64,000 nt of DNA. It comes from an uncultured virus (IMG/VR IMGVR_UViG_3300025000_000008). Its lineage: Duplodnaviria > Heunggongvirae > Uroviricota > Caudoviricetes. The notes under the pieces are model-generated. The model did no database searches and was not told the DNA's origin. It saw only the letters and a program-made list of their open reading frames with translations. Shown piece by piece: positions 15,144-59,549 of the stretch. Location of the stretch: IMG/VR virus record IMGVR_UViG_3300025000_000008; one strand, given 5' to 3'. Both the position numbers and the translations under genes were made by a program. Position 1 is the stretch's first letter; each line of letters opens with the position of its first letter.

Positions 15144-15248
15144 TATCTTCAACCTTTCCGGCATCCAGCCGGGGAATATATTCTCAGCAGGAATACCCGC
15201 AGGCCGGGCAGACTCCATTGATTAAACGATTGCTGCAGTCAGGACAAA

Positions 15249-15795: not shown

Positions 15796-16578
15796 TTACC
15801 ACTCCATCTTTACGGTCTTGCTCTTGTTTCCGTATGGAGCATGCAGATAGATCCCGCCATGAGCCGTGCCGATATTCGTCTCGCCTTCACCGTTCGGCAC
15901 CCCATTACCCGGCTTGAAAACAAAGCCATCTTTCTCAGCGGAAGAATCTCTATTACAGGTATCTTCCCGATCCCGACAGTTTCGAGCAGTAGACTTGACA
16001 ATGAACGTCTGGCCATTAGAGAAGGTGAATTTCACCGGACCGGGTCCAAGAGAGTCACCCCTCTTTGGTATCCGCCAGGTCATCCTGCCTCCGTTGCGCT
16101 CCCCGTAGCTCGTATATTCTGCGCTATTTTTGTAACTGCCGGTGGGATTGGTCGGGCTAGAAGATCCAGAAGTAGCAGCATATACCCCGCCGTCAACCGT
16201 CTTGATAATGAACTTCAGCGGGCGAGAATACTTGTCGCCGGATTTGGTCAAAAGGAAGACAGAAGCACCTTTATAGGAGACCCCTTTTCGTGCAACCTCT
16301 CCATTGACCGAGACATAGTTGACCCAGTTATCAGGGCTCGCCCGGAATAGGATGGCCGCAGCACCATTGCCTTGGTCCGAGTCTTTTTCAAACGTAATGG
16401 TATGCGGAAATGCTTTTGTGGTGCTCGGTGGAGGTTTAACCGGATCAACCGGGCCGACTGGGTAATATTGATCACAAAGGGCCAGGCATTGCCCCCGGGT
16501 TGCGGGCAGATCAATTGCCTGAGCTTGGCTGAGTGTAAAAGCAAGGAGCAGGGTGAGTAAACTTGTGAGCGTCTTCAT
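15796..16578 (-). CDS. Secreted protein with signal peptide
   Basis: MKTLTSLLTLLLAFTLSQAQA|ID; Cys pairs; Pro linker. Confidence 0.75.
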   Translation of the reverse strand: MKTLTSLLTLLLAFTLSQAQAIDLPATRGQCLALCDQYYPVGPVDPVKPPPSTTKAFPHTITFEKDSDQGNGAAAILFRASPDNWVNYVSVNGEVARKGVSYKGASVFLLTKSGDKYSRPLKFIIKTVDGGVYAATSGSSSPTNPTGSYKNSAEYTSYGERNGGRMTWRIPKRGDSLGPGPVKFTFSNGQTFIVKSTARNCRDREDTCNRDSSAEKDGFVFKPGNGVPNGEGETNIGTAHGGIYLHAPYGNKSKTVKMEW

Positions 16579-16579
16579 T

Positions 16580-17032
16580 TTAATCCTCTTCAACTATCGG
16601 ATTGTCCTCGGGGATATCATCAACATTGTCAACCTCATCGACTACACCGAGTTCTTCCTCAACTATCGGTGTAGGCTCAGGTTTCACTGGCTCAGGATTA
16701 ACTACAGAGTTGTCAGAATTATCAATTTTTACTGGTTTGAGAACGTTCGGGGTTATCCGATCAAGCAAACTACCTGCAGCGCCGACGGAGCCGTCTCCAA
16801 CCGGAATCGTTGCGTTTTGCTCTCCGTCAAGTTCCCCCTTGCTGTCAGCCGCGGCAATAAGTGTTCCATTACCTTCATTATGATTCTCGACATCAACAAT
16901 ATAGAACGTCCCGCACCCGCCGAGAGAGATAAGGGCCAGGATTATAACCAGCCCCCACAGACAAAAGCCGATCAGTTTTGTCCAGTCCATATTACCAGTC
17001 GAACATCGAAAAAATCCACTACTTGCATTCAT
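16580..17032 (-). CDS. Lipoprotein (o-spanin-like or surface protein)
   Basis: Hydrophobic stretch then lipobox LGGC; acidic Pro-rich tail. Confidence 0.65.
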   Translation of the reverse strand: MNASSGFFRCSTGNMDWTKLIGFCLWGLVIILALISLGGCGTFYIVDVENHNEGNGTLIAAADSKGELDGEQNATIPVGDGSVGAAGSLLDRITPNVLKPVKIDNSDNSVVNPEPVKPEPTPIVEEELGVVDEVDNVDDIPEDNPIVEED

Positions 17033-17040
17033 GCTTCACC

Positions 17041-17214
17041 TCATTGGTTAGGGTTTGATTTATACAACTCCTGATAACGTTCTGCCGATTGTAACATTAC
17101 CGCGGCGGAAACTTTTTTCGGTCCGCAGCATTGCTCCATAAAAAAGACATATCCACCGAAAACAAAAAAGATAAGGAAGGATATAATCGCAATTGTTTTG
17201 ACCTTGTCTTTCAT
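17041..17214 (-). CDS. Small membrane protein (57 aa, not in ORF track)
   Basis: MKDKVKTIAIISFLIFFVFGGYVFF...; ATGA overlap. Confidence 0.55.
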   Translation of the reverse strand: MKDKVKTIAIISFLIFFVFGGYVFFMEQCCGPKKVSAAVMLQSAERYQELYKSNPNQ

Positions 17215-19457
17215 TGCATGCTCCCGCTAAATGAATTAGGTATGCTGGTTCGCCAGGGTTCTGGGCCAGGTTCAGGGGTAATGTACGGCTCCTCAGTTCC
17301 GACTTCAATCTCATCAAGCCACATCGTTTCGGTTATAGGGGCTCCGTCGCCGATCCATGGTGATAAAACAAATTGACTCCACATTTTGGTAGCATCTTGT
17401 CCTGTCCGATATTGCACATCCAGGTGATTCAGAACAAGTTCGCCATCAATCCATTCCCTCATAACCCCATCCCTTTGACCTACTCCGTCATCGATAGTAT
17501 TCATTTTTAAATATACCTCAACGCGACGCCAATCATTTGTCAATATTGGGATATTTGAACGCCAGGAGTTTGCAGAATAATATGGATTATCAGGATAGCA
17601 AATTCCAGTCGCCCCAGCAGGAGCCGGCTGATTGCAATATGTTACGCTCCTATTCTCCGTAGTTGCCGATAAATCGAGGGGAAGTGAACCGGAGGTTGTA
17701 TTCACCCGCTGTTGATCCTGAATAGCTATAACCGGATAAGTGGTATATGGGGCTCTAAGATCGGTATTATATTCGATATATGTGTTCAGAAAATTATTCG
17801 CCAAAGGCGTATAATCAACATCAATATTAGAGGGGATCGTGATCATATGTGGATGATAAGTCTGTTGACTTCCTCTCCACCCGGTCTGAAATTTTACATA
17901 GAATGAGACATATAAACTATCGGTTTCGGGGAAGAGATGTCGCATACTTCCGCCATTAACTGGCTGTGCTTCCCCCTGAGTCCAAGTCCATTGTAAACAA
18001 TTACCAGAGTAACCGCCGGAAACTATTGTTCCGTGATTAGTATTGTCATACCAGTCTCTATCAGCAAATTGATTATTATCAAAACTCTCAATGAAATAAG
18101 TTTCCCCTGGCTCAGAAGTCAGAGTATAGTTTGCTACGATGCTATCATATCCCCAATTTTGAGCGGCATCATAACAACCGACATAAACAGTACTTCCATC
18201 AGAAGGGAAGGAATTAACAAATCCTGACCATGCCGTAGTTCCGGTTAAAGCAACCCCAGAAGTTGCATCTGGCTGGGCGTTAATCCTGGCTTTGCAACCT
18301 ACTACTCCGGTTGCATCCTGCGCAGTCCCTGATAAAAACTGCGGGGTTGTGGTAAAATTCAATGGGTCGTCACCACTTATTACCACTACGGGAGAAACCG
18401 TATCTCCTGACCCACCCGACATGGTATAAACCGCGCTTACTTCTTGTAGATAGTTCTTGACCCGGAGTCGATAAGCGCCGACCGATAAGGTAGGTAATTC
18501 GGCGGTTACCGTAATAGATGTTTCCGATAAAGAGGTAGGGGGTTGCCATTTCCAAGTCAACCCGCCGTCGCCACTTATTTCAATGGTAGATGATGGATAA
18601 ATCCTACCTGTATGGCCGAATGCCAGATTATCCAACCATTGATTAATATCAGCAACTACCGAGGTCGAAGCGAAGTTAATAATGCCGAATTGAGGATAAG
18701 CATTATCTGGCATAGCCACGCCAGGAGATACATTAACTAATCGTATGCCATCGACATAAAGTTGATATGTTCCAGGGGATAGCCATATCCCTTCGATACA
18801 ATACCACCGATTATTCTGCAGGTTCAGTGAAGGGCTTGGGCCGCTGATCGAACCATATTTGGTCGTCAATGCAGATGGTAATTGACCCGGCATTGCCCCT
18901 TCAAGATCCAAGTACCACATAGCCCCGCTTCCGGCCGGCTGGGTAACCGTCATTTTTGTATAATTGTCCGGGTAGTTTCCGTTATTTGTTCGGTATCTGG
19001 TATAATATCGGAAATAAAAATTTCCAGAAGTCGACCCTGGATAAACTTGCACTGCTGATCCGCCATCATTATTCTCACCAGGATTCGTCCCGCCCCGGAC
19101 TCGACAATTCATTGCCATGTTGCCGGCAAGTTTAACGGTAGATTCAAACTTGCAATCCATTGCAATAGATCCATCTGGTTCCCCTGCTGGGGCCGAATTC
19201 GGACCAAGATGATAGCCGTCGGTTTCTGGCCATGTCTGCAGGGCGGTACCACTCGATACCGCCGATTCAAAACCATACATCGCTGAGATGCTCTGAAATT
19301 TTGAATCCCAGAGAGTATTATTCTCGTTGATCATATTGGCCCCGGAGATGGTCAAAGTCTGACCATTGGTTACCGTCCCGGCGACATATGTTACGGTTGG
19401 TGTTGCGGCATTAGCCTCGACAGAAAACAGGAGAATTATCGCAAGGAGAAATATCAT
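17211..19457 (-). CDS. Signal-peptide protein with two jelly-roll (ConA/polysaccharide-lyase-like) domains and Ig-like linkers
   Basis: MIFLLAIILLFSVEANA|AT; YFRYY...RWYCIE...LYVDG; LYVSFYVKF...WRRVEVYLKMNT...DGVMREWIDG...WLDEI. Confidence 0.75.
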   Translation of the reverse strand: MIFLLAIILLFSVEANAATPTVTYVAGTVTNGQTLTISGANMINENNTLWDSKFQSISAMYGFESAVSSGTALQTWPETDGYHLGPNSAPAGEPDGSIAMDCKFESTVKLAGNMAMNCRVRGGTNPGENNDGGSAVQVYPGSTSGNFYFRYYTRYRTNNGNYPDNYTKMTVTQPAGSGAMWYLDLEGAMPGQLPSALTTKYGSISGPSPSLNLQNNRWYCIEGIWLSPGTYQLYVDGIRLVNVSPGVAMPDNAYPQFGIINFASTSVVADINQWLDNLAFGHTGRIYPSSTIEISGDGGLTWKWQPPTSLSETSITVTAELPTLSVGAYRLRVKNYLQEVSAVYTMSGGSGDTVSPVVVISGDDPLNFTTTPQFLSGTAQDATGVVGCKARINAQPDATSGVALTGTTAWSGFVNSFPSDGSTVYVGCYDAAQNWGYDSIVANYTLTSEPGETYFIESFDNNQFADRDWYDNTNHGTIVSGGYSGNCLQWTWTQGEAQPVNGGSMRHLFPETDSLYVSFYVKFQTGWRGSQQTYHPHMITIPSNIDVDYTPLANNFLNTYIEYNTDLRAPYTTYPVIAIQDQQRVNTTSGSLPLDLSATTENRSVTYCNQPAPAGATGICYPDNPYYSANSWRSNIPILTNDWRRVEVYLKMNTIDDGVGQRDGVMREWIDGELVLNHLDVQYRTGQDATKMWSQFVLSPWIGDGAPITETMWLDEIEVGTEEPYITPEPGPEPWRTSIPNSFSGSMQ

Positions 19458-20941
19458 TACAGTGCCTTAAATGTCATGAATATTGAAAGATAAGAATCCT
19501 CTGAATCAATCGTTGCGACAGTTCCCCCAGGGAAAGTCCCAGTCGCAGAAACAACCTTGTCAAATAAACTTGATTGAACGGCTTGTTCAGTTCGGCGAGT
19601 AAAACCTTGCTGCGCAGTGAAGGTATGTGTAGCATCCCAAGGGAGAACAAAAAAGACCAATAATTCAGCATCCACCGCTGTGGTTTCAGTATCAACCGCT
19701 GTCAAGTTCGTTGACGGCCCACTCAAATAGAGGCAATCAGCATCATTACAGGTTGATTTATCAAGGGCGGATGAAGTGGCGATTCCTGAGTAAGCTGCTG
19801 CCGCAAAATTTCTATATACTGATCCTGCCGCAAAAGTCGCTGTGCAGGTCCCGGTATAGGCAGAAGCATTCAGTTTATACCAACCCTCAAATGCGTAGCC
19901 GGCTGCAGATCCATCGGCAAGAATGGCTTTGCCTAGTGTAAGGGTATTTGATCCGCAAGTTACTCCAGTAATATCTGCGCCGCCTTCAGCATAACCACCA
20001 ACCGATGCAACGATAGCATTTCCAGATGCAACCACAAGATTAGTCGCGGTGACAATAGTTGATGCCTCCGTATCCGCAACGGCAACAGCAACGGACTCAA
20101 ACTCAGGACCGCTCGGAGCAGAATCAGCAGTATATGTTCCTTCAAATTTTGTAGTTCCGCCAGCTTCCCGGACATTGAGTGTATGATCGGTTGAATTGTA
20201 CCAGACGTCATTTGTATCTGGACCGACCGGATCTGAGGTCACAAAATCAATGCCGGTTCCAGATCCGCCGCCGGGTGACCAGAACTCGATCGAACCTCCT
20301 GGCCCTTTCCCGTAACATGTGCCGATAGCTGCAGCTCCCGCCCCTGCTGCTATGACAAGGTCAGCGTCCCATGGCTGTATCAATGTATTGATGTCGGAAG
20401 CGAGCAGAAAATAATCATCCCAGTCAGTACCGTCGGCCCAATATAATCTGCCGCCGTATCCTGAAAATCGCCCAAGAGTTGGAGTTGCGGTTATTGCAAC
20501 ACCATTATAGAAATCTCCATAATGAGTGCCATCAGCGCCCGTTCCGATAACCGATGGGGACTCTATGGTCCCGCCAATCGTCAGCTTATTCGTGACTGGA
20601 TCATAAACCAGCCCCGCATCACCGACGAACTCTCCCCCTATATATACCTGGACTTGCCCTTCTGATCCGCCTGGGATTCCCGTACCGCCTTCAGGCAGAG
20701 GAAAAAGCAAACTTTCAAATGCAGATTGTGTCGCAATCTTATTCAATACATAGGTTGCAATATTGTCTGAGCTGGCATATTTCGTTACCCAAGATGCAGC
20801 GGAATCTTCGAGTAAAAAGATATCATTCGCAACAATCGTTGTTTTTTGGCTTTTGTCAGCATGGAGTCTGAATGATGATCCAGCTCCATAAGAATTTCCA
20901 GCTAGCGCCAAAATAAGAAAGAATGGAAGTAGTCTTTTCAT
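19457..20941 (-). CDS. Signal-peptide protein with tail-fibre-like motifs
   Basis: MKRLLPFFLILALAGNSYG|A; PGGSEGQVQ...FVGDAGLVYD, QPWDADL, TSDP...DVWYNST. Confidence 0.7.
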   Translation of the reverse strand: MKRLLPFFLILALAGNSYGAGSSFRLHADKSQKTTIVANDIFLLEDSAASWVTKYASSDNIATYVLNKIATQSAFESLLFPLPEGGTGIPGGSEGQVQVYIGGEFVGDAGLVYDPVTNKLTIGGTIESPSVIGTGADGTHYGDFYNGVAITATPTLGRFSGYGGRLYWADGTDWDDYFLLASDINTLIQPWDADLVIAAGAGAAAIGTCYGKGPGGSIEFWSPGGGSGTGIDFVTSDPVGPDTNDVWYNSTDHTLNVREAGGTTKFEGTYTADSAPSGPEFESVAVAVADTEASTIVTATNLVVASGNAIVASVGGYAEGGADITGVTCGSNTLTLGKAILADGSAAGYAFEGWYKLNASAYTGTCTATFAAGSVYRNFAAAAYSGIATSSALDKSTCNDADCLYLSGPSTNLTAVDTETTAVDAELLVFFVLPWDATHTFTAQQGFTRRTEQAVQSSLFDKVVSATGTFPGGTVATIDSEDSYLSIFMTFKAL

Positions 20942-21237
20942 TATGCCCTCTGTATTTGTTGTCCAGCTTCTTTACTCATTTGCCTGAAATTGAACTCTGT
21001 CCAATCGGGGCATTTTTCAAAATACCACGTTACCGGCACGGTTATTATGCGGTCATCTTTAGTTTTTATTCCCCAGCATATTGGTTGGCCAAATTTATAT
21101 CCAGGCGTATCCCTCTGTTCTCTACTTGCCATATCATCAAGCCAGTGAGAGACGACCTTTTTTATCTTCCTGGGGAATGGCCACCATGATCCTGGATCTC
21201 GATATTTTAATGTGTAAAAATCTTTTACTTTTGCCAT
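20941..21237 (-). CDS. Hypothetical tail-fibre-associated protein
   Basis: Coupled ORF directly downstream of the tail fibre. Confidence 0.55.
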   Translation of the reverse strand: MAKVKDFYTLKYRDPGSWWPFPRKIKKVVSHWLDDMASREQRDTPGYKFGQPICWGIKTKDDRIITVPVTWYFEKCPDWTEFNFRQMSKEAGQQIQRA

Positions 21238-21239
21238 TA

Positions 21240-22034
21240 TTACACCTGTATTTTGTAGAAACCTGATAGGAATTTAGCCCTGTTTTCGGTATTGCTTGCC
21301 GGGCCAGAAGTGGTCGATGGAGGATTAACCGTGTGCGAATGGGGATCGCCTGACCCTGATGATTCTGTTGATACATCATTTCCATCGTACTTCGTATTGC
21401 CTGTATAGCGATATGTTCCAGAACCATCCCCGTTAGACAGTATAACATGGTCATGTGGGCCGTTTTGTGCCGCAGTCAGCTCAGTTCCTCCTGAATCGAA
21501 CGAGGCAATGTCAACGGCATGCGTGTGAGCCATAGTGTTACTACCACCAATCACGCCCGCAACAGTATCCCCTTGGAAGAAGCGATCGTCGGTAAGATTT
21601 GGAAGGTAACGACCTGTGCCATCGTAATAGTCAGAGCCAGCCACATTACAGGCTGCACCATTGCAGAAATATTCCCTGCCGGGATTGATCAAGGCATTAA
21701 TTGCTGCAGCCGTCAGCACCGTTGAGGTATATCCGCCATTTGCATTATTGGTAAAATAGCCTGGGAGAAATGCTGTAATTGTTCCAGCTATTGGCCGGTA
21801 GTCGGTTGCTCCCGGCTGAAGTATCCATCTTCCATCACCAGCATTAGTCACAGGTGCAATGATGGTCGTTCCATTCGCTACAAGGCCGGAATTAGCGTTG
21901 TATTTAAAAAACTTCACATTACCATCAAGAACTACTGCAAATGCGCCATCGGTCAAACCGGCGCCATCTTCTGCATCAAGAGCCCCGGCGAAGCCACCGG
22001 TTGCCGCCGTATATCCCCAACCCTGATAACTCAT
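21240..22034 (-). CDS. Tail fibre protein with collar domain and HxH tip motifs
   Basis: GTITAF, FCNG, LPNLTDDRFFQG, GGSNTMAHTH, LTAAQNGPHDH, PHSH. Confidence 0.85.
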   Translation of the reverse strand: MSYQGWGYTAATGGFAGALDAEDGAGLTDGAFAVVLDGNVKFFKYNANSGLVANGTTIIAPVTNAGDGRWILQPGATDYRPIAGTITAFLPGYFTNNANGGYTSTVLTAAAINALINPGREYFCNGAACNVAGSDYYDGTGRYLPNLTDDRFFQGDTVAGVIGGSNTMAHTHAVDIASFDSGGTELTAAQNGPHDHVILSNGDGSGTYRYTGNTKYDGNDVSTESSGSGDPHSHTVNPPSTTSGPASNTENRAKFLSGFYKIQV

Positions 22035-28901: not shown

Positions 28902-28958
28902 GTGGTTTCTCCTATAGCTGGTTGGTGGTTTATAAAAACGGACAAACATCTCAGAATA

Positions 28959-29375: not shown

Positions 29376-29385
29376 AACTTCCTCC

Positions 29386-31017: not shown

Positions 31018-31018
31018 T

Positions 31019-31690
31019 TTAAACCTTTGTATACAAATGCGGATCAATAAAAGCCCGGCAAAGTTTTTCTTGCCAGGTGAGACCAAAGGATTCAATCAGT
31101 TTTTGAGCGGGTTCGAAATTGCCGGCGATCAATTCTGACGGCCAGAATTCCGTAACATTCAATCCTGCGGTTTTCATTTCGGCAAAACGCCGCTCATGAA
31201 CATCAACCCAAGACTGCCAGCCAGCGGCATCTCTATAGGCCCGCATGAATCTTGTTTTTTGACAACTTGCTACAATCCCGGCATGTTCCCGTTTGACTAT
31301 AACCCACTTTGCCTCCGGGAATGCAAGATGCCACAAATACCAGAGGTGGCAGGACTTTGGGCATTTATAAAACCATTCTCCATCTCGATACCCTTGATGT
31401 TGGATAACGAGTTGAACCCGACCCCGAAAAGCTTTGGCTTCATTGGCAGAGACTTCAAATACCTGCCGATTATTTGGGAGGGGTTTCTGTGCCGATGGGT
31501 CGCAACCAATCTTCTTTAAATGGGGGCGGACTATATTTAAACGGATCTCGATATTTTCGAAAACCCCCTTCTGGCAAAAGGCATTGGCCCCGTACATATC
31601 CCCACCAAAAGCCCCGCAGATGTTAAAAATACCGGCGGTCATGGAGGTTCCGCTTCTGGCGCAGCCAACAATCAAAATGGGATCTTTCAT
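31019..31690 (-). CDS. Sulfotransferase
   Basis: PAPS-binding loop ILIVGCARSGTS; G.FEN; YKCP; FPEAKWVIVKR. Confidence 0.85.
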   Translation of the reverse strand: MKDPILIVGCARSGTSMTAGIFNICGAFGGDMYGANAFCQKGVFENIEIRLNIVRPHLKKIGCDPSAQKPLPNNRQVFEVSANEAKAFRGRVQLVIQHQGYRDGEWFYKCPKSCHLWYLWHLAFPEAKWVIVKREHAGIVASCQKTRFMRAYRDAAGWQSWVDVHERRFAEMKTAGLNVTEFWPSELIAGNFEPAQKLIESFGLTWQEKLCRAFIDPHLYTKV

Positions 31691-32322
31691 TTGTACTCCT
31701 CGTTGACTTTATTCCATAACTCCGGAACCTCAAACGGTCGTGGGTGACCATGGAACACAAGCACTTTACAATCTGCCGGAATCCCCTCCTGGCATTGGCG
31801 TTTCCATGAATAAATACCGGGAAAGGCTTTCTGCAAAATACGGGGTTGAATATTTCTTTCTTTTAATTTTGACAGGGTATAATCTTCTTCCCCGCGCAAT
31901 CGTTTTGATATTTTTTTGTAATCGAATTCTTTATATAGCCAGGTCCAGTGGTGATTATAAACCATGATCCCGGAAATTGTTTTGATCGGTTTCCGCCAGG
32001 AGTGAATCATCCAAAAATCTTCGTGACCACACCTCTCTGCAATTTTAAAAAGAGGATCAATATTCCCAATAATCATTGTATCGACCCCAACTACAATAGT
32101 CGGACCGACATTTCTAAAGACTTCCGGAACCGACCACCAGCCTGGCCAATTCTCCAGAAGGGGGATGCTTATGACCCCTGGCATTTCATCCTGGCAATCG
32201 GTATAACAAACAAAATCATAATCTATTGTCGTATGTTTCTTAACCTGAGCAGCCAGAAGAGTTACATGTTCTGGTTTATAATCTCCGCCAAGTTTCAGGA
32301 CGCAGGCAAAAGTCGGTTTCAT
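31687..32322 (-). CDS. Glycosyltransferase (GT-A-like)
   Basis: CVLKLGGDY.PEHV, FVCYTD, WPGWWS, GVDT, SGIM, FHG.PRP. Confidence 0.8.
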   Translation of the reverse strand: MKPTFACVLKLGGDYKPEHVTLLAAQVKKHTTIDYDFVCYTDCQDEMPGVISIPLLENWPGWWSVPEVFRNVGPTIVVGVDTMIIGNIDPLFKIAERCGHEDFWMIHSWRKPIKTISGIMVYNHHWTWLYKEFDYKKISKRLRGEEDYTLSKLKERNIQPRILQKAFPGIYSWKRQCQEGIPADCKVLVFHGHPRPFEVPELWNKVNEEYK

Positions 32323-32966
32323 TTATTCGCCAGCCTCCAAAGTTTCCTGTCGTTCCAGGGTTTGTGTTTTCCGTAAAAAATCATGACCCGGGGATCTCGG
32401 GCCTTACCCCTGAGATAATGGTCTCTGTAACTATATACTCCCAGAACCTTATCCTGAATCGTCCCGATTGTTACCCCGCGATTTAATAAGGACTGGATCT
32501 GGTAATTTTCATCGCCTCGGTATTCAGCTGAAGCTTTTTCAAAATCAAAGTTTTTATACAACCAGCTCCAATCGCCATTCCAAATCTGCATTCCATTGAT
32601 TACCTGGCCAAGATGCCAGAAGGAAGCCAGAAGAAAAAACTCATTGGGGCTGACGTCGCAAGCAAACTCCAGAATGTGATCAATATTCCCCAGAAATAAG
32701 GTGTCAAGGCCGACGATAATTGAAGGGCCTTGGTGTTTCCAAAGTTCAACGCAGGACCACCAGCCGGGATAATCTTTTTCAAGCCGAATAACAGTTATGG
32801 AATCAAGATGATCAAGTGAATCAGGATCATCGGTATAACAAACAAATTCGCAATCAATAGTTGTATTTTTCAGGACTTGACTATACAAAGCGGCAATATG
32901 CTCGGCTTTATAAACCCCGCCGGTTCGATAACAACAAACTATTGAAGGGATTTGATTCATAACCAT
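32319..32966 (-). CDS. Glycosyltransferase (paralogue of 31687-32322)
   Basis: GGVY..EHI, FVCYTD, YPGWWS, GLDT, GDENY, FYG..KPW. Confidence 0.8.
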   Translation of the reverse strand: MVMNQIPSIVCCYRTGGVYKAEHIAALYSQVLKNTTIDCEFVCYTDDPDSLDHLDSITVIRLEKDYPGWWSCVELWKHQGPSIIVGLDTLFLGNIDHILEFACDVSPNEFFLLASFWHLGQVINGMQIWNGDWSWLYKNFDFEKASAEYRGDENYQIQSLLNRGVTIGTIQDKVLGVYSYRDHYLRGKARDPRVMIFYGKHKPWNDRKLWRLANK

Positions 32967-33448
32967 TCACTCTCCGGAACCCGACCAACCATCGTTTGCT
33001 TACCGCCGACCATCCCCCACTTCTCGCCGGCGGGGATATCCTTACGGACAAATGTACCGGCATAAATAAAGGAGTTAGAACCGATCCTCACCCCTGGGCA
33101 GATAATAGACCCGGCTCCGATCCTTACTCCATTACCAATAATGGGGCCTTGGATATTCGGAATTGTCCGCCCCTGATTGGCAATATTCTTTTCGTTGGTC
33201 ATAATCACTCCAGGGCCGAAGAAAACATTATTGCCGATCTTGGCTTCGCCGGTGATATGGCACTGGCTCTGAATCGTCACGTTGTTACCGATAGTTGTAT
33301 CCCGCTCAACCACGACGCCATGACCAATCACGGTTCCGGCTCCGATCTTGACGTTATCCCGAATGACGCAGAAATGGTAAATCTTTGCCGTCGGATCAAT
33401 CTGGACGCCTTTGTCGATGATTACATGCTCACTGATATTTCCCTGCAT
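32957..33448 (-). CDS. Hexapeptide-repeat (left-handed beta-helix) acyltransferase
   Basis: IGxxxx hexapeptide repeats; FGPGVIMTN; WbpD-like layout. Confidence 0.88.
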   Translation of the reverse strand: MQGNISEHVIIDKGVQIDPTAKIYHFCVIRDNVKIGAGTVIGHGVVVERDTTIGNNVTIQSQCHITGEAKIGNNVFFGPGVIMTNEKNIANQGRTIPNIQGPIIGNGVRIGAGSIICPGVRIGSNSFIYAGTFVRKDIPAGEKWGMVGGKQTMVGRVPESEWL

Positions 33449-34074
33449 ATTTCCTCGAATGGTTTATAAGGAATGATTGTAAGCGCACTGTCTGGCGTAC
33501 AGTTTATAATTTCAAGGCCAATCCGCGCTGCATCTTTGACGATATATGGCCAACCTTTCATAAAGCGGGGATAAGGGTCGGTCAACTTGCCCGGCTTCTG
33601 GAATCTTTTCTCATACTCATTATGCCAATGAGTATTGTCTTTTACATCGGCTGGATTCTTCATATCAAACCCAAGAAGAATAACCCGCTTGGCACCAAGC
33701 CAATAGGCCAAACTTATTGCTGAGGCCCCGGAGTTCGAGTTCCAGGCGACATGTGTTCGTTTGACATATTCAATCCCGTATTGCTTGGATCGATTTACGT
33801 ATTTGATATTGGGGAATCGATTCTGCTCAGTCGCTGCGGAACAGGTGGCGATTATTCCGCCGTATTCCCGTAGTTTCTTAGCATTGGTATAACCCCATTC
33901 CTTATCCCCGTACCAGCAGATATCGACCCAAGGACCGAGCGAGAAGGCGTGATTTACGCCGATTACCCGCTGGGTATGAATAGGGGTCAAATCCTGCTGC
34001 AGAAGCGAAGGCCCACCGCCGATGATAAATACGGTGGAGCCTGGCCATAACTCGGGGATAGTCCAGAGTGGCAT
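33421..34074 (-). CDS. Maf/DUF115/GT42-like transferase
   Basis: VFIIGGGPSL, VIGVN, NSG..AI.LAY.LGAKRVILLGFDM, HWH, IINCTP.SAL. Confidence 0.75.
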   Translation of the reverse strand: MPLWTIPELWPGSTVFIIGGGPSLLQQDLTPIHTQRVIGVNHAFSLGPWVDICWYGDKEWGYTNAKKLREYGGIIATCSAATEQNRFPNIKYVNRSKQYGIEYVKRTHVAWNSNSGASAISLAYWLGAKRVILLGFDMKNPADVKDNTHWHNEYEKRFQKPGKLTDPYPRFMKGWPYIVKDAARIGLEIINCTPDSALTIIPYKPFEEICREISVSM

Positions 34075-34076
34075 GA

Positions 34077-34622: not shown

Positions 34623-34634
34623 ATCTGATTGGTT

Positions 34635-34670
34635 TCAAAAGAATGATGAGAATAAACCCTCATCATTCTT
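34635..34670 (-). terminator. Terminator after the major capsid gene
   Basis: AAGAATGATGAG / CTCATCATTCTT inverted repeat with a T-run on the - strand. Confidence 0.7.
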
Positions 34671-34698
34671 GATATGTTCTTGCATTTAATCGATCAGC

Positions 34699-35754: not shown

Positions 35755-35803
35755 TTCTTTCTCCTATTCAAAGTTTGACCGATAAAAATCGAATCGAATA
35801 TTA

Positions 35804-36289
35804 TTAGATGATTTCGACTGCAAAAAGCCCAGTCGGATCTTCCCCGGTAGAGCCAGACATATCGCAGGCTTCGGCAGCCTGACCAATAATAGCCTCGGGG
35901 TAAATAATCGGGGTATCGCTGGAGCTATTCGCATTCAGGATTGGATCATGTTTGCGAAGCTCACCGCCACCTGCTGATTCAACGAAGTCGCCAGCAACGA
36001 CCGATTCCCCATCTGCCAGCCGGCAAAGAATTTCCGCACCGCGCTGGGGGATGATGCAACGAATGAGAGAACTGTTTGCATAGGCGTCGGTAATCGTCTT
36101 GCCCTGGCCTTCATCTTCCATGGCAAACATCTTCACGGCGTTTCCGCCAGCAGTAGCATGAACTCGAACGGTTCCGCCAGTGATGACCTCAATCAAATGG
36201 CCGGGCTTAATAGCAGCGGCAGTTGAGGTTTTGAATTTGGTAAGAACATCCCCCAAGAGAGGGATTGTTTTTCTACGTGTATCAGCCAT
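35804..36289 (-). CDS. Capsid decoration/cement protein
   Basis: AIKPGHL, H.TAGG, GD.VES.G.G.LRK; directly upstream of the capsid gene. Confidence 0.7.
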   Translation of the reverse strand: MADTRRKTIPLLGDVLTKFKTSTAAAIKPGHLIEVITGGTVRVHATAGGNAVKMFAMEDEGQGKTITDAYANSSLIRCIIPQRGAEILCRLADGESVVAGDFVESAGGGELRKHDPILNANSSSDTPIIYPEAIIGQAAEACDMSGSTGEDPTGLFAVEII

Positions 36290-36349
36290 TTTATTGCTCC
36301 TTTCAAAAGGGATTTTTGTTTAAATCGGGCCGTAGTCAGACCGAGTCGT

Positions 36350-37828
36350 TTACTGCTTCGTGGCGAAAATATCCTCAAGAGTCCGAGGAACATAGGCCTC
36401 TTCGCCGGGGCCTTCACCCTCATTGACTATCGTCTCGCCGGGGCTGCGGCCAGAAAAATTCGGCCGAGATGTAGGCTTGACCGGGATCAAGGCAGCGATG
36501 GATTCCAACATGGAAACATCCATTCCTTTCAGGGCATCTTCCTTGAAGGTATTCTGTTCATTGGCAATAATGCGGGTGATCAGGTTCGCCCTCTTATTGT
36601 CGAGTTCCCGCAGGCCAGAATTCAAGACGGCCCGGATCTCAGGGGGTGCCGAATTCAAGAATCCGGTCAGATCAACCGGTGCGGCGGGAGCGGCTACTGG
36701 AGCTTCCGTTTTCACAGGCTCCGTCGCCACCTCATCATTGGAGATCAGTTTTTCAATCTGCGCATCATTCAGGCTGGTCAACCATTCGCGATCAGTCTCC
36801 GCGAAAGCATTCTTGTCGTTTGCGATGAGGGCGTTAATTTTTGCCTCACAGCATTTCTTTCCTTTTGTCTCTGCCATTGTTCCCTCCTTTAGGGTGTTGG
36901 TATTGGCAAGTTGTACTGCGCCCTCATTGGCTTTTGGTTTATAGGTAATTTCCTCAACGACCTCTGCGGCCGGAGTTGGAAAACTCAATTCGCCATTGTC
37001 ATCGACGGCATATTCCTGTTTCAATAGAACTTCAATTTCTGGTTGGTTCGGTCTTCGAACTCTTTGTTTGTAAATAAAATGATCCGAGTAAATAGCCCGG
37101 GTGAAATTAATAATTATTGACTGATCAGTGTTCCGATCGTATACGTCCATGGAGTCAATATAAATCCGTATTCTCTCCTGCAATGCCATAAGATCGAGGC
37201 TATTGATGAGGATGATATGCGATTCTTTATTCTTCACGGCGGTATTAAAACGAACCCCGCAACCATCATTCCAGGAACATGCCCCAGTCGAATTGGGCAG
37301 TAGGGCCAGATGATCCGGCATCATATCGATTATACTTGCGGAAAACTCTTCGTTATTCCAAATGCCGGCCGTTCCATCATCAAGGGCCATCATGCCGGTG
37401 GATACCTCAAGATTTCCCCCATTCTCGATGAATTGGAGCAGGGCTGGAGAAATAGAAGAAGCCCTGGAAGTATTAATCCAGATATCGGCCTTCAGCTTTC
37501 CATCCTCAAACCTGACATTGGCTATATGACCAATCTGGAATTGCTGACGGATAGTTCCGTCGTGATTGCAGAGAACATGCGTCCCATCAGAAAGAACCGG
37601 ATGACCGACGGTGACTGGCATATTATTCCAAGCAGCAGCGGATCTTTCCAGTACTGCTTGATTATAATAAACCGGGTCTGAACCAATACCGTGATGAACC
37701 CCTTCAACCAACATCACACAAGGGTAAATCTGGTATTCAATATTGCCGACTATCTGCTTGCGAAGGGTCTGTTGCTTCAAGGTGTTTGCGACCGCCTTGG
37801 CGAGCATCATCTGTCTTTCTTTGGTCAT
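36350..37828 (-). CDS. Prohead protease/scaffold (DUF2213-like)
   Basis: WN..PVT.GHP, EVSTG, PDHLALLP...GACS..DGCG; helical scaffold-like C-terminus. Confidence 0.82.
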   Translation of the reverse strand: MTKERQMMLAKAVANTLKQQTLRKQIVGNIEYQIYPCVMLVEGVHHGIGSDPVYYNQAVLERSAAAWNNMPVTVGHPVLSDGTHVLCNHDGTIRQQFQIGHIANVRFEDGKLKADIWINTSRASSISPALLQFIENGGNLEVSTGMMALDDGTAGIWNNEEFSASIIDMMPDHLALLPNSTGACSWNDGCGVRFNTAVKNKESHIILINSLDLMALQERIRIYIDSMDVYDRNTDQSIIINFTRAIYSDHFIYKQRVRRPNQPEIEVLLKQEYAVDDNGELSFPTPAAEVVEEITYKPKANEGAVQLANTNTLKEGTMAETKGKKCCEAKINALIANDKNAFAETDREWLTSLNDAQIEKLISNDEVATEPVKTEAPVAAPAAPVDLTGFLNSAPPEIRAVLNSGLRELDNKRANLITRIIANEQNTFKEDALKGMDVSMLESIAALIPVKPTSRPNFSGRSPGETIVNEGEGPGEEAYVPRTLEDIFATKQ

Positions 37829-37843
37829 TGGATTTTTCTCCTC

Positions 37844-38818
37844 TTAATCTTCAGGTATATACGGCAAAGCCACACAACGACATTGTGGATGAACCGGGAT
37901 TATATATTCAGCCTCTTCGATGCTGTATCTCTTTCCGTTCAATGGGGCGCAAATTGAACAAACCCGATCATCACCGGCAGTTAAATGTTCGGCTTGAATC
38001 TGGATACCCATAAGGCCAGCCGCTTTATACTCCCCGATATTGGCCGAGTGATGCGCCCGAATGACTTCAGTCCTGGCAAGTATTTCCGCCCTTCTCCTGG
38101 CCGGGATCTTCCTCCCAAGGGAATCAATTATCTCAAGGCTGGCTCCATCTCCGGTTATTGCTTTATCTAATAAGCGGGCTATCTCCCTCGGCCCCTTCCC
38201 GTCAGCAATCCCCATGGCCAATACATCAGAAACCGTACTCTCCATTTCGGCCGTAATACTTTTCAATGAAGTATAGGCCCTGGTATAAATCAATCCGACA
38301 CGATCAACATGGACTGGACCATTGAAAGAGACTTGGATTGGATCGGTTTCCAGCCCTTCACTTCCATCATCTATCTCGATCCCCTTACATTTCAATTCCT
38401 GCCGCGCCCTGCGGATACCCCGCTGGTATGCTGAATCAATGAAAGTTGATATCCAAGAGTCTCTGGCTTCGGTTGGATTGGTAAGAAGATTATCGAAAGT
38501 GATATTGATTCCGGTCCTTTTTCTCCTGCTGGATAACAAATATTCTTCAGATTTTCCCCGCAACCATTTAACGAATGCTTCAATCTTCTGGTCGCTTCGG
38601 GGAAAATCAAATTGCTTCGTTGAAAGCCCGGAGGCATTAAGAGAAAGCCGCTGTTGTTCTTGCGACAATGCCAATACATCAAGTTCAATAACCGCTTCCT
38701 TTATATCCGCCATAAGGCGACCGAAACGCGAACGTACTTCGGCGACAAAACGATTACGTATTGTGATTGTTTTAGTCGGGTCAATCGAATTGACTATGAA
38801 GTAGGTATTTACGGTCAT
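37844..38818 (-). CDS. Head morphogenesis protein (SPP1 gp7/Mu gpF-like)
   Basis: RAEILARTE, DDRVC.IC, IPVHPQCRC. Confidence 0.9.
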   Translation of the reverse strand: MTVNTYFIVNSIDPTKTITIRNRFVAEVRSRFGRLMADIKEAVIELDVLALSQEQQRLSLNASGLSTKQFDFPRSDQKIEAFVKWLRGKSEEYLLSSRRKRTGINITFDNLLTNPTEARDSWISTFIDSAYQRGIRRARQELKCKGIEIDDGSEGLETDPIQVSFNGPVHVDRVGLIYTRAYTSLKSITAEMESTVSDVLAMGIADGKGPREIARLLDKAITGDGASLEIIDSLGRKIPARRRAEILARTEVIRAHHSANIGEYKAAGLMGIQIQAEHLTAGDDRVCSICAPLNGKRYSIEEAEYIIPVHPQCRCVALPYIPED

Positions 38819-38868
38819 AAGCCTATCAAATAAATTTAGTATAATTTTTGACTGATAGTAATTTCTTA

Positions 38869-40629
38869 TCAATCACGTATCCGGCCGTTGCCTGGAATAC
38901 TGCGGAGTGCACCTGATGTGCGGAGGTTGCCATAGCGTTGTGGTCCGAAATATCCTTCCCTGATCCAGTCATTTACTGGTCCTGCCATAATTTCCTGGTC
39001 CCAGGAAAATCTGTCCTGTGCTCTAGCCATATTAATAAAATCAGTAATCGTAGCAGATTGCCCTATACTGTCCATGTATGTCTCTATCGACCTGGTGACG
39101 TCGAAAAACCCGGTAGGACCGTGAACAGAGGTGTCTCCAGTCGTAGCCTGCCACGTCTCAAAACTTACACCAACGCCAGATAACTGAAATAGGGAATTTT
39201 CGGCACGATTACTGTAATATTTATTCCAGCTGAACTCAATCCCGGCTGGCGACCTATCAGACTGTATCAGATATCCGGCGTTGTTTTCTGTATATAAAAT
39301 ATTGTCTGCAAATTGGGTATTATCTGTAACGCTGGTTTCTTTAATTTCTAATCCGTTAGAATATACTACGCCATAAACAATGTTATTCAAAATATTTACA
39401 TCTCTACTCACGCCGTTGAGCGTAATAAAAGAGGCGTCGGTGATAATTGGGTCTGAGTTTTTCAACATTAAATTTCCTGTTATTTCCCCACCATCCCAAT
39501 CAAACACGTCTATTCCCCACGCGATATCCTGCCCCGTCGAGTCGGACCCGCCGAGTTCGGTTATCACGTTATTTTTCAGCACAAAATTTACAAACCGTAA
39601 ATCATCAAAAACATTACCCCCTATAGAGAGTCCGACCTTTCCGTACACATATAAATTGTTTTCGACTGTTACATCATGCGAGGATAACCCCTCGTTGTTC
39701 TCGGAAAATTTGTGATGGATGGATGATGGTCGCGACGATATGTTTCCACTAAAAACTGAATCGTACATACTGGCGGTGTATAGATTATGATTGTATACCG
39801 TGGCTGTGCCGGGGGTCCCAGGAGCGGCTGTGTACCAGCCGTTGTGATCAAAAACATTTTCCTCAATTTCCGCAGAAATGTTATATAAATACAACCCTTG
39901 AGCGTGTTGGCCATCCCTGTAGTTATCGAGAAATACTGACCTCCTAACGGTCACACCGGTCAGGATTCCTCCTGTATCAGCCTGAATGGTGTTGTTGGAA
40001 AAAAATCTAAACCTGCACCCCTCAATCAATATTCCGCCACCTGTTGAAGCACCTCCTACAAAAATACTTACCCCGTTGCTATCATTATCCTCATTCACAT
40101 ACGATGGGGAGTCTGGATCACGTGCGGGGGCATAGAAAGACAACCCGAAAACAGCCCAGAACTGAGTGTTGCTACAACATTTTTGTATTGCTGTATGCCC
40201 ACTTGAGGCTCCGGTTTCGATAACTGGAGATAGTCCAGATGAGCCGTATGCCCCCAGGAGAAAAGGCTCAGTTAAACCGCGCCCGTTGCGAATTGAAGAA
40301 CCAATATCCTGCACAAAGGTTTCTCCGCGCTTGAATAAAATCCAGTCGGGGAAATTCGCTCGGGTTTTTGCGAACGCTACTGCGTATGTCTCGCATGGAA
40401 CAATGGGGCCAACCGGGTCAAAAGGGTCAGGGCCTATAACCTCATCGTCATCATCATAGGCGACGCATGTGGTATTATCGCCATCACTGGCAATATATAT
40501 TATCTTACTATCATCAGAGGGGGTGAAAACTGTCCATCCATCTGCATCCAGCGGGAGACCCGTCCCTTGGGCCCCAGATGAAAATATTGAAAATATTAAA
40601 AGAAGTAATAATATTAACAACCATCTCAT
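38869..40629 (-). CDS. Signal-peptide right-handed beta-helix protein (pectate-lyase/depolymerase-like)
   Basis: MRWLLILLLLLIFSIFSSGAQG; ILFKRGETF; repeated I..N.F/V.NN strands; HNGW, NHNLY. Confidence 0.8.
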   Translation of the reverse strand: MRWLLILLLLLIFSIFSSGAQGTGLPLDADGWTVFTPSDDSKIIYIASDGDNTTCVAYDDDDEVIGPDPFDPVGPIVPCETYAVAFAKTRANFPDWILFKRGETFVQDIGSSIRNGRGLTEPFLLGAYGSSGLSPVIETGASSGHTAIQKCCSNTQFWAVFGLSFYAPARDPDSPSYVNEDNDSNGVSIFVGGASTGGGILIEGCRFRFFSNNTIQADTGGILTGVTVRRSVFLDNYRDGQHAQGLYLYNISAEIEENVFDHNGWYTAAPGTPGTATVYNHNLYTASMYDSVFSGNISSRPSSIHHKFSENNEGLSSHDVTVENNLYVYGKVGLSIGGNVFDDLRFVNFVLKNNVITELGGSDSTGQDIAWGIDVFDWDGGEITGNLMLKNSDPIITDASFITLNGVSRDVNILNNIVYGVVYSNGLEIKETSVTDNTQFADNILYTENNAGYLIQSDRSPAGIEFSWNKYYSNRAENSLFQLSGVGVSFETWQATTGDTSVHGPTGFFDVTRSIETYMDSIGQSATITDFINMARAQDRFSWDQEIMAGPVNDWIREGYFGPQRYGNLRTSGALRSIPGNGRIRD

Positions 40630-41192
40630 GGGGCAACCTCAATTAGAATGTTATCCACGTAGATTATTCCGCCAGCCGCGTTGTAATCATTCTGGAAATC
40701 AATAGAATCATTGGAACTGTCTGATGTAAACTGCCCTGATATAGTGGCCCATGAGCCACATGTTGGTTTGCTGCGGTACACCTGTTGAAGCGTGAACGAC
40801 ACTCTAAGCCCCGTGCTTACACCCCCAGAACATGGTAAATAGCAATCAAATGAGTAGTTGTGGAGTGTGCTGGGGGCAAAGTTTGGAGGAGCTACGCGTG
40901 TAAACGCCCTGACCGTTGTTTCGGCATCAGCAACAAGCTTCAGCGAGCCTGTGGCTGAGAGAACGGTATCTCTAGCGTATGATTCCCACGCGTAAGGATT
41001 GGTTCCGTTATTCCATAATGCAGTTTGGTCAGTTCGAAAATCCTCACAGAAAAACGCTCCTGCGTGTGTGTCACAAAAATCACCTGCAGGAGCACTCGCC
41101 GTAACCCCAGCAACAAACCCAGGAGGGAATGCCCACGCCCGAGACGAGATAAAACAGAGCAGTATAGAGAGTGCAATGATAAATTTTCTCAT
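40626..41192 (-). CDS. Signal-peptide protein with a CBM/jelly-roll-like domain
   Basis: MRKFIIALSILLCFISSRAWA|FPPG; FCEDF; W.TISG.FT; IYVDNI. Confidence 0.7.
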   Translation of the reverse strand: MRKFIIALSILLCFISSRAWAFPPGFVAGVTASAPAGDFCDTHAGAFFCEDFRTDQTALWNNGTNPYAWESYARDTVLSATGSLKLVADAETTVRAFTRVAPPNFAPSTLHNYSFDCYLPCSGGVSTGLRVSFTLQQVYRSKPTCGSWATISGQFTSDSSNDSIDFQNDYNAAGGIIYVDNILIEVAP

Positions 41193-41193
41193 A

Positions 41194-42087
41194 TCAGTTC
41201 GCCGTCCCTCCATCAACACTCGCCGCTGTCTCAGAATAGACCGACCATGTATCATCAGCAGTACACATCAGCGTGACCTTGGTCCCCGCCGTTGCCGCCA
41301 TATCCAACTTATTGTTGGCTGTCAATGCCGTTCCTGCAAACAGGTTAAAGTGATCGCCGGAAGCTGGCACAACCTCAATCTTCTCAGCATCCCTCGCCCA
41401 CAGCATGACAAATGCGCCTACGCCTGCTGTCTCGCAATCCCACATAGTCACCTCGTCGGCTGTCGTCATCTGCACTATTGAGGCATTGTGGTCGGCAAAG
41501 GTCAGTGTCTGCGCTGCCGTGTAGGAGTTGATCAGCATCTTGCCCTGCACGGCACCGGATGTTTCTACGTTCTCCGTGTCAATGAGCGGCTGATAGCCTT
41601 CTTCAATCTGCTCATACGTAGGAGCAATTTTTTGTTTGTCGGCTGTCGGGGTGGTATCGCTGATAATCGGCCTGAGCGGAGTAGCTGTGCCTGTCCCGGA
41701 CCCTGCACCAGATGCGGTGAACTCTACCCCGATTGTATTTGCAGATGCCCCGATTGCGGTAAAGTCTGTGGTGCCTACCGAGGCAATCACATATGTGACC
41801 CCTGTTTCAAACGCTCCTGCGGTCTGCGTTGCGCCTGAGATGGTGAGGTCAGCGTAGCTGGCGGCGTTGAAGGCTATGTTTTCTTTCTTCGCAAAAACAG
41901 TCTCTAGCCATGTTTTAATGGTATTCAGCACTGCCCAATTATTTCCAGTGCCATCTGGATTTTCGAGGAAAACCTTTTCAGTGCCTGAAATGCTGGTGTC
42001 TTCATCGTCGGTTGTTTCCCAGCTCGCACCCATTGCTACATGAGCAGATAAAAGGATGGATAGCGCTACTACAAAAATTCTCTTCAT
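41194..42087 (-). CDS. Signal-peptide fibre-like protein
   Basis: MKRIFVVALSILLSAHVAMG|A; AGAFETGVTYVIASVGTTDFTAIGA virion-type motif; C-terminal beta domain. Confidence 0.7.
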   Translation of the reverse strand: MKRIFVVALSILLSAHVAMGASWETTDDEDTSISGTEKVFLENPDGTGNNWAVLNTIKTWLETVFAKKENIAFNAASYADLTISGATQTAGAFETGVTYVIASVGTTDFTAIGASANTIGVEFTASGAGSGTGTATPLRPIISDTTPTADKQKIAPTYEQIEEGYQPLIDTENVETSGAVQGKMLINSYTAAQTLTFADHNASIVQMTTADEVTMWDCETAGVGAFVMLWARDAEKIEVVPASGDHFNLFAGTALTANNKLDMAATAGTKVTLMCTADDTWSVYSETAASVDGGTAN

Positions 42088-59537: not shown

Positions 59538-59549
59538 AAAGGAGAGTTT

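Follow-up and report, generated by a model that had tools for sequence, protein, structure and literature searches.

In textbook tailed phages all parts are built in the cytoplasm and soluble depolymerases are released by lysis only, and known tailspikes carry no signal peptide and possess an N-terminal particle-binding domain. Among phage-coded exported proteins, Llp of T5 is described (PMC9586334) as a periplasmic protein (61 modelled residues) that is coded downstream of the receptor-binding protein gene pb5 and acts on the phage's own receptor. The subject of the present analysis is a set of six late genes of an uncultured siphovirus, found in a stretch of 64,000 nucleotides (nt; IMG/VR record IMGVR_UViG_3300025000_000008, the whole stretch being called the window below), whose products begin with predicted Sec signal peptides. 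The genes lie in a head-side and a tail-side cassette of a single siphovirus late operon on the minus strand and total 7,737 nt, so that about 12% of the window codes for late proteins predicted to leave the cytoplasm before lysis, some of them with virion-fibre architecture. Judged from their leaders, the six products almost certainly leave the cytoplasm through the host Sec pathway, with removal of the leader by signal peptidase I (SPase I). As to function, the reading that we favour, evenly poised between right and wrong in our estimate, is that these are late-made exported proteins that bind and degrade glycans of the host envelope or matrix and would not be obligatory parts of the virion. 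The six genes, with product lengths in amino acids (aa), predicted leaders and the residues at +1, are as follows, the first three forming the head-side and the last three the tail-side cassette:

41194 to 42087, minus strand: 297-aa predicted exported fibre-like protein; leader MKRIFVVALSILLSAHVAMG, +1 residue A; 55-aa fibre repeat at about residues 84-140 and C-terminal gp9/gp10-type knob at residues 182-294
40626 to 41192, minus strand: 188-aa predicted exported protein with six Cys; leader MRKFIIALSILLCFISSRAWA, +1 residue F, heuristic score 6.39
38869 to 40629, minus strand: 586-aa predicted exported beta-helix-type protein of a cellular secreted family, so assigned from the Pfam annotation of homologues; leader MRWLLILLLLLIFSIFSSGA, +1 residue Q
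19457 to 20941, minus strand: 494-aa predicted exported fibre-like protein, assigned export from its signal; leader MKRLLPFFLILALAGNSYG, +1 residue A
17211 to 19457, minus strand: 748-aa predicted exported two-domain polysaccharide-lyase-like protein, assigned from a structure model with a mean predicted local distance difference test (pLDDT) score of 68.7; leader MIFLLAIILLFSVEANA, +1 residue A
15796 to 16578, minus strand: 260-aa predicted exported protein of a lysis-proximal module, assigned from signal and position; leader MKTLTSLLTLLLAFTLSQAQA, +1 residue I

Leaders of the six late proteins

An earlier reading of the window (the original prediction) held that six minus-strand open reading frames (ORFs) coupled with morphogenesis genes begin with signal peptides, and this is borne out in each part. 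All six ORFs are present with a GAGG-type ribosome-binding site ahead of each, the start of each abuts or overlaps the upstream stop (ATGA or TAATG), and all six products start with a textbook Sec/SPase I signal peptide with heuristic scores of 5.45-7.14. Signals were called with a purpose-written heuristic at a threshold score of at least 5.4. It looks for a short N-region that is positively charged or neutral, a hydrophobic core free of charges and 7-15 residues long, small side chains at -3 and -1, and a cleavage site ahead of residue 35. The heuristic marked 7 of 37 late-operon proteins, namely the six and the lipobox-like product of 16580-17032, none of 286 controls (terminase, portal, MuF, scaffold, capsid, other cytoplasmic homologues, related loci), and 22 of all 695 ORFs of at least 100 aa in 70 related loci. 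Directly behind the six leaders there is no credible in-frame restart preceded by a ribosome-binding site, and dual isoforms made from internal starts were rejected on that ground. In the heuristic run Gln stands at +1 in two of the six window leaders. Another small protein with a textbook leader (MKRYLLAILILLSIPTVSFA, followed by G; heuristic score 6.59) is coded in the replication/early region (56213-56617, plus strand).

Across homologues the leaders are conserved whereas the mature parts diverge (related loci and contigs are given L-numbers, the complete relatives are G002 and G004, and homologous proteins carry P-numbers). All 12 relatives of the 748-aa protein have a leader, and behind it the mature part starts alike, with TPTI..V.GT. 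Among the best 119 of the 306 homologues of the 586-aa protein, the mature motif GW[TS] lies within 110 residues in 103, with a hydrophobic segment ahead of it in 98. Holders of the 297-aa-type knob number 46 among the best 149 of 1,973 HMMER matches, and 35 of these have an export signal by the heuristic (33 signal peptides and two lipoboxes); the other 11 comprise six fragments or mid-protein starts, one protein with an evident lipobox (P0212) and four that are apparently signal-less. Orthologues swap between SPase I sites and lipoboxes. Homologues that start downstream of the hydrophobic segment, which the original prediction would have counted against export, were found for the 260-aa protein only (the L155 homologue, with a signal-less Cys-rich N-terminus) and not for the other five. 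The proposal of Sec export with folding outside the cytoplasm has support in textbook leaders that are conserved in homologues, together with conserved Cys pairs.

The leader of the 188-aa protein (41130-41192) is near-identical to that of a 248-aa protein of L148 (L148:10807-10920), with 73% over 37 residues and unrelated mature parts, and leaders may be recombination joints between cassettes.

Domains and relatives of the exported proteins

Two of the six proteins are enzyme-like. In the model of the 748-aa protein, residues 452-723 fit the polysaccharide lyase (PL) family 14 alginate lyase vAL-1 with Z 19.9, a root-mean-square deviation of 3.0 and 212 of 243 residues aligned, and also fit Aplysia PL14 (Z 18.2) and the PL36 enzyme Aly36B (Z 18.1), generic lectin-like domains standing about 4 Z units below the PL matches. 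Residues 49-291 fit the PL20 glucuronan lyase 2zzj (Z 16.6, 201 residues aligned) and Cip1 (Z 15.7), and the profile of the 748-aa family matches CIP1 at E 8.3e-5. PDB sequence searches with three proteins and the profiles of three families returned only a fibronectin domain, CIP1 and a weak vAL-1 match. The protein is filed as lyase-like, and not as a family member, because Pfam scores lie under the gathering cut-offs: the score against Pfam PL14 (PF21294) is 17.0 bits, below the cut-off of 27, and PF14099 is passed by P0132 only (37.6 versus 29.9 bits) among 10 relatives scanned. In the family alignment R506, Y560, E562, Q580 and D581 are invariant and K522, H535, H537 and Y549 nearly invariant; as for the cysteines, C620 is invariant and C608 nearly so. 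Lyase activity is probable from the modelled fold, and is graded only so because lectin-like toxin Hc domains also reach Z ~15.

The 586-aa protein has 306 homologues at E ≤ 0.001, with about 40% identity over 91-100% of the length, and from the cleavage site onward it is collinear with more than 300 cellular secreted proteins, some of which bear sorting domains of the type IX secretion system (T9SS). Compared with these cellular homologues, its extra part is only a tail of about 20 aa. The homologues occur in many phyla, too many to indicate the host. The beta-helix that the original prediction had read in this protein is backed by its relatives, PF13229 (Beta_helix) being precomputed on 13 of 120 listed homologues (17 have any Pfam family), whereas the window protein itself has no Pfam family at E ≤ 0.01. 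At 5 of 15 cellular loci (L074, L079, L080, L082 and L084) the homologue is accompanied by an exopolysaccharide (EPS)-type cluster, with GT2, GT4, WecG, flippase, pyruvyl- and sulfotransferases as neighbours, and others of the loci adjoin carbohydrate-active enzymes; no phage-type Pfam family was found near the cellular homologues in the 46 of 108 neighbour ORFs scanned, which were the larger ones. These sequence relations suggest that the 586-aa protein is likely a polysaccharide-active enzyme. A search of cultured phages with it gave nothing, and the only match of the cultured-phage search was a 42-residue repeat in a structural protein of cyanophage S-TIM54.

Two further proteins are fibre-like. 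The 55-aa repeat of the 297-aa protein recurs in giant fibre-like proteins, the largest of 7,522 aa, and 93 of the 103 proteins that have only this repeat, among the best 149 of 1,973 matches, are without a leader. From about residue 180 onward, where the knob lies, the model has pLDDT >90, the N-terminal half being fibre-like and of low confidence. In fold, residues 182-294 match the Pa223 capsid spike (Z 12.0), CBA120 TSP4 (Z 11.5), the KP1 baseplate (Z 11.2), the Solidus tailspike (Z 10.3) and T4 gp9 (Z 9.7), the next unrelated row standing at Z 7.0. The Cys pair C218/C275 is conserved in the knob family, and lipoboxes are found in its members P0154, P0196, P0212 and P0254, two of which the heuristic marked. 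The 494-aa protein has an orthologue in L144 (52% identity) that lies directly after the fibre gene and carries the lipobox LASC, and its other relatives are in the portal-MuF cassette of L016/G002 and in L149. A word-indexed search with it returned one relative, the nearest Atlas clusters are viral hypothetical proteins (best score 0.78, all <0.8), and viral-contig scans with the 494-aa and 260-aa proteins returned the phage's own fragment only, or nothing.

The 188-aa protein matched no Pfam or PHROG family, and its relatives are an identical copy in L001 and the product of L148:10807-11553, which is similar over 37 residues only (the signal and a few more). For the 260-aa protein no Pfam, PHROG, PDB-profile or Atlas match was obtained, nor any muralytic signature. 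The N-termini of its family are a signal peptide (window, L157), a lipobox (L020, L146) or neither (L155), and it is accompanied by a lipoprotein, a Cys-rich protein and membrane proteins at the end of the operon. It is a candidate lysis or envelope factor; its lysis-proximal position, together with the lack of a recognisable endolysin in the window (Pfam and PHROG on the late operon, Pfam on 34 other ORFs), raises the possibility that it is the missing endolysin. Its lipoprotein homologues (L020:12113-12631 and L146:9777-10265) have acidic residues after the lipidated Cys (C-SSDDDQ and C-DGGGDE), a stretch that recalls what we take to be the surface-export signal of Bacteroidota lipoproteins.

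With regard to the mature parts, the fibre repeat and knob of the 297-aa protein, the two jelly rolls of the 748-aa protein and the conserved Cys pairs (knob and 748-aa families) are confirmed. The label of fibre or adhesin, given originally to the whole set, holds for two of the six and not for the two enzyme-like proteins, the protein without an assignment and the member of the lysis-proximal module. The genes beside the six and at the end of the operon are:

42557 to 42829, minus strand: signal-less 90-aa product of the conserved gene that opens the portal-MuF cassette; translation beginning MPDPYNTPNEIIIREK
42084 to 42557, minus strand: 157-aa signal-less protein with true start MDLSLGL (remapped start)
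21240 to 22034, minus strand: 264-aa signal-less tail fibre candidate with HxH motifs, assigned from position and motifs
16580 to 17032, minus strand: lipoprotein-like proline- and acid-rich protein, the seventh of predicted exported type; probable start M15, lipobox-like LISLGG before C
14694 to 15795, minus strand: end of the late operon, with a Cys-rich 99-aa protein, a 97-aa protein with two hydrophobic segments and a 174-aa protein with a transmembrane segment and a coiled coil

The ORF listed as 42084-42731 has its true start at 42557, and the resulting 42084-42557 product is 55-66% identical to proteins of L144, L148, L155 and L157. In L155 this domain takes up residues 437-564 of a protein of 585 aa that is coded downstream of the tape measure gene, and the first 437 residues of that protein are 80% identical to a 475-aa protein of L147. 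Placed in this way, the domain could equally be a docking platform or a receptor-binding module. The 42557-42829 product matches the 90-93-aa first cassette genes of L005, L009, L010, L016 and L021, and neither a Pfam nor a PHROG family was matched by it. The head-side neighbour that had been named gp7 is in fact a Mu F-like minor head protein (PF04233). The HxH motifs of the 21240-22034 product are presumably fibre motifs, and its homologues (46-50% identity) stand ahead of genes with signals in L144 and L145; the protein matched no Pfam or PHROG family, and no intragenomic paralogy with the exported proteins was found. The 16580-17032 product may be o-spanin-like, and in L157 its homologue lies directly before that of the 260-aa protein. 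The 97-aa protein of the operon end may be holin-like. In L147 an SLT-type endolysin (phrog_669, E 9e-32) comes after the homologue of 14694-15218, and a tblastn search of the window with that endolysin gave no match.

Cassette variability and the role of the exported proteins

The cassettes are hypervariable and dispensable in relatives, and would be accessory and horizontally mobile. The gap between portal and MuF is at most 451 nt in 34 of the 48 related loci that hold both genes, and inserts of 1-5 kb with differing content occur in 14 of the 48. Five of the 14 inserts code for proteins with signal peptides or for lipoproteins (L016, L018, L020, L021 and L038), and some code for signal-less proteins, for example an SGNH esterase with the N-terminal peptide MNLSLGLIGGRR joined to it and a beta-helix protein of 615 aa; the L016 and L020 cassettes are without the stub gene, as we call genes of the 42084-42557 type. 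In the complete relatives the exported set differs from that of the window: 7 of 100 ORFs of G002 are signal-positive, four of them at the portal-MuF junction, and 4 of 85 ORFs of G004, all at that junction. The family of the 494-aa protein follows the tail fibre gene in the window and L144, but belongs to the portal junction cassette in G002. Relatives of five of the six families recur in differing combinations in the unrelated phage contigs L144-L149, with five signal-positive ORFs in a run in L149. Promoter-like sites are at background (10 versus 12.7 ± 3.4, and 13 versus 8.7 ± 3.0), and none lies at a cassette border.

A tyrosine recombinase of 280-288 aa adjoins the cassettes in L148, L155 and L157. 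It is small and Xer-like (PF00589, E ~1e-20; L148:8105-8971, L155:10186-11028, L157:10678-11520), lies beside the stub and exported genes, and could be an integrase with neighbouring cargo or a cassette-shuffling enzyme. Some of the signal-bearing proteins end in a C-terminal tag of about 18 aa: the beta-helix protein of L147 ends RTSGNLAPRTGYGWMRD (L147:13391-13450), a 484-aa protein of L148 ends RTSGNLAPRTGNGRMRD (L148:12926-12985), and the tagged end in the window is RTSGALRSIPGNGRIRD, the tag sites of the window being 38869-38930 and 17211-17255. A second form, ...SFSGSMQ / ...SGAGTMGLQ, is found on lyase-like and beta-helix proteins. The tag may be a docking or sorting peptide, and its RTSG form is not present in the listed cellular homologues.

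In the reading that we favour, the set would consist of a polyuronate-lyase-like two-domain enzyme (17211-19457), a beta-helix enzyme acquired from exopolysaccharide loci of cells (38869-40629), two fibre-like proteins that bind glycans or receptors (41194-42087 and 19457-20941), a small Cys-rich protein (40626-41192) and a member of the lysis-proximal module (15796-16578). Compartment, substrates and benefit to the phage are what we infer as follows. The products would be made alongside the virion proteins and pile up in the periplasm or on the envelope, where disulfides are possible; there, and in the matrix after the burst, they would strip, cut or mask host surface polysaccharide or receptor, and the progeny would escape the matrix and not be lost to debris or already infected cells. 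Such a role is favoured because two of the proteins are enzyme-like, one of these being of cellular origin without an added domain; because the cassettes are dispensable and shuffled, and a signal-less fibre candidate is present in the same operon; because the lipoprotein orthologues (L144 with LASC; P0154, P0196, P0212 and P0254; L020 and L146) would stay in the membrane; and because T5 Llp provides a precedent of a periplasmic protein coded just downstream of a receptor-binding gene. Matrix-degrading enzymes or receptor decoys had been the alternative in the original prediction, and for part of the set this alternative now has support in the jelly rolls of 17211-19457 and the EPS-linked secreted family of 38869-40629. 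It is the best reading here, at what we regard as a level balance of belief and doubt.

The view that the original prediction had put first is that of periplasm-matured virion appendages, in which the fibre-like proteins, and perhaps the enzymes, fold with disulfides outside the cytoplasm and bind cytoplasm-built particles when the envelope breaks; the signal-less 42084-42557-type domain could be the docking point, or the C-terminal tag the link. We consider this possible but rather unlikely, and several observations speak for it and weigh against an accessory role. In the PDB the nine top-ranking matches of the knob (Z 9.2-12.0) are without exception proteins of phage virions, its 409 viral matches in BFVD at E ≤ 0.001 include named tail fibres, and the fibre repeat is common to giant phage fibres. 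The tail-borne signal-less domain has genes with signals one to two genes after it, both in the window and in each of the five other contexts that were found. Relatives that are not exported have the same N-terminal peptide joined to the SGNH esterase, and the exported versions would need a separate stub. The tag (RTSG...GNGRxRD / ...SGxGSMxxQ) is found on 6 of 1,124 ORFs scanned, by a pattern set post hoc after the tag was noticed, and all six are signal-bearing and belong to three unrelated families. The genes are translationally coupled inside the virion operon; lacking a promoter or terminator of their own and overlapping or abutting their neighbours, the cassettes are therefore not classical morons, and autonomous moron units were rejected. 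Finally, gp085-087 of Cellulophaga phage phi18:3, which are signal-bearing, are annotated in the phage record as structural 'based on experimental MS/MS proteomics analysis' (MS/MS, tandem mass spectrometry), although detection in virion preparations can reflect co-purified envelope material. Virion appendages are at odds, on the other hand, with lipoprotein orthologues that would remain in the membrane, with cassettes that are dispensable and shuffled between head-side and tail-side sites (those of L016 and L020 without a stub gene), with a 586-aa protein that adds only its short tail to the cellular architecture, with a signal-less homologue of the 260-aa protein in L155, and with the canonical signal-less fibre candidate (21240-22034) that is already present. 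A full-text literature search found no paper on Sec-exported tail fibres or parts of tailed phages; in PMC3556154 the term 'signal peptide' is confined to the references. A second, extracytoplasmic arm of tailed-phage morphogenesis, in which Sec-exported fibres and glycanases are oxidatively folded and clipped onto finished particles at lysis, is a doubtful proposition, as is the view that the window would then offer one siphovirus case of a route in wide use.

Superinfection exclusion or lytic conversion alone, with proteins that act from within on the receptor or its biosynthesis, have no role in release and are prophage-expressed in temperate relatives, is improbable. It would agree with genes that adjoin receptor-binding-type genes as T5 llp adjoins pb5, with the existence of lipoprotein variants, with the hypervariable content expected in an arms race, and with the tyrosine recombinases beside the cassettes of L148, L155 and L157, conversion genes usually lying beside such recombinases. 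However, these are late genes without their own promoters in a phage in which no integrase was found, and late exclusion would therefore protect little; moreover, proteins of 188-748 aa with enzyme or fibre architecture are unlike the small Llp/Cor lipoproteins. Most improbable of all is that the N-terminal hydrophobic segments are not export signals and reflect chance, mis-called starts or uncleaved inner-membrane anchors for assembly. The leaders are heuristic predictions and the N-region of the 748-aa protein is without a basic residue, which would allow for such an error, but the controls were free of positives, the leaders are conserved while mature parts diverge, orthologues alternate SPase I sites and lipoboxes, cellular homologues are secreted (some with T9SS domains), and no alternative start follows the leaders.

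If the proteins act on envelope or matrix, as we favour, they would represent a new class of glycan-directed lytic-conversion or release factors and a source of secretion-competent polysaccharide lyases. If instead they join the particle, the tailed-phage assembly pathway would need a new branch, and host-range prediction would have to take in genes that annotators now pass over as host-like secreted proteins.

Operon context and comparison with described systems

The late operon runs in this order:

46618 to 14694, minus strand: terminase large subunit, portal, Mu F-like minor head protein, scaffold/protease-like protein, decoration protein, major capsid protein
continued, minus strand: glycosyl-/acetyl-/sulfotransferase block, connectors, tail terminator, tail tube, chaperones, tape measure, distal tail proteins, fibre candidate

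The non-late part of the window codes for a DnaE-type polymerase, clamp loader, RecA, primase, SNF2 helicase, sigma factor, ThyX and 7-deazaguanine synthesis genes. The phage is an uncultured siphovirus with a genome of roughly 69 kb (its proteins appear in homologue tables on a contig of 69,194 bases), about 5 kb of which lie beyond the window, and its nearest cultured capsid is that of Brevundimonas phages (33.5% identity). The late operon was scanned with Pfam and PHROG and a further 34 ORFs with Pfam; no integrase came to light in these scans, and a tRNA search of the window returned none. Between the capsid and connector genes lie five transferase genes (31019-34074, minus strand) that code for an MptE-like/sialyltransferase-like protein, a hexapeptide acetyltransferase, two phrog_1962 glycosyltransferases and a sulfotransferase; three to four of the five have homologues at the same place in G002 and G004, and sulfotransferases also adjoin cellular homologues of the exported beta-helix protein. 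The block may serve glycosylation of virion proteins or remodelling of host glycans. A 7-deazaguanine-type cluster (57235-63471, plus strand), with PAPS-reductase-like, PTPS/QueD, radical-SAM QueE-like, QueC and GTP cyclohydrolase I genes, suggests modified DNA.

At the level of glycans, the proposed role would parallel that of T5 Llp and of receptor-destroying enzymes. Like Llp and Cor, the window proteins are phage-coded, predicted to be exported and specified by genes adjacent to receptor-binding-type genes. Llp and Cor, however, are small single-domain lipoproteins that jam a TonB-dependent transporter, whereas the six of the window are of 188-748 aa, with SPase I sites and lyase, beta-helix or fibre architecture, and are coded in a late virion operon; no sequence or fold relation of the window proteins to Llp or Cor was found. 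Exclusion lipoproteins of the Llp/Cor type were considered as a class for the six and set aside, for the gene adjacency is there but the six have SPase I sites, with lipoboxes only in 16580-17032 and some orthologues.

Virion depolymerases and tailspikes (CBA120 TSP4; Acinetobacter phage Solidus gp83; PDB 7rej, 24qj) share with the window proteins the polysaccharide-directed beta-helix, lyase and knob folds and the gp9/gp10-type domain, and in relatives this position in the cassette is occupied by beta-helix and SGNH-esterase proteins that have no signal. The window proteins differ in that they start with a predicted cleavable leader and that no particle-binding domain was identified in them. 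For the jelly rolls of the 748-aa protein, the best fold matches are Chlorella virus vAL-1 (PL14; PDB 3gne, 3a0n), which is likewise virus-coded, and the Trichoderma PL20 glucuronan lyase (2zzj), although the sequence identity to the two domains is 10-11% and Pfam scores are below the curated cut-off. The secreted or periplasmic polysaccharide enzymes of EPS clusters, among which we take AlgG-, AlgL-, PelA- and PslG-type enzymes as the terms of comparison, resemble the 586-aa protein in that its homologues carry leaders and sit in such clusters at 5 of 15 loci; the difference is that its family is nameless and its function putative.

A similar gene arrangement is seen in Cellulophaga phage phi18:3 (NC_021794), in which gp085, gp086 and gp087 are three consecutive large proteins with textbook signal peptides, coded upstream of the lysis genes like the tail-side cassette of the window. 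phi18:3 is a podovirus of Bacteroidota with an MS/MS annotation, whereas the window proteins are predicted products, and BLASTP at E ≤ 0.01 found no similarity between gp085-087 and the exported proteins of the window. phi18:3 would serve as a cultured proxy for the question of virion versus envelope. Only if docking were shown would the window proteins be categorically new; in relation to published knowledge they represent a variant of phage accessory exported proteins and phage depolymerases.

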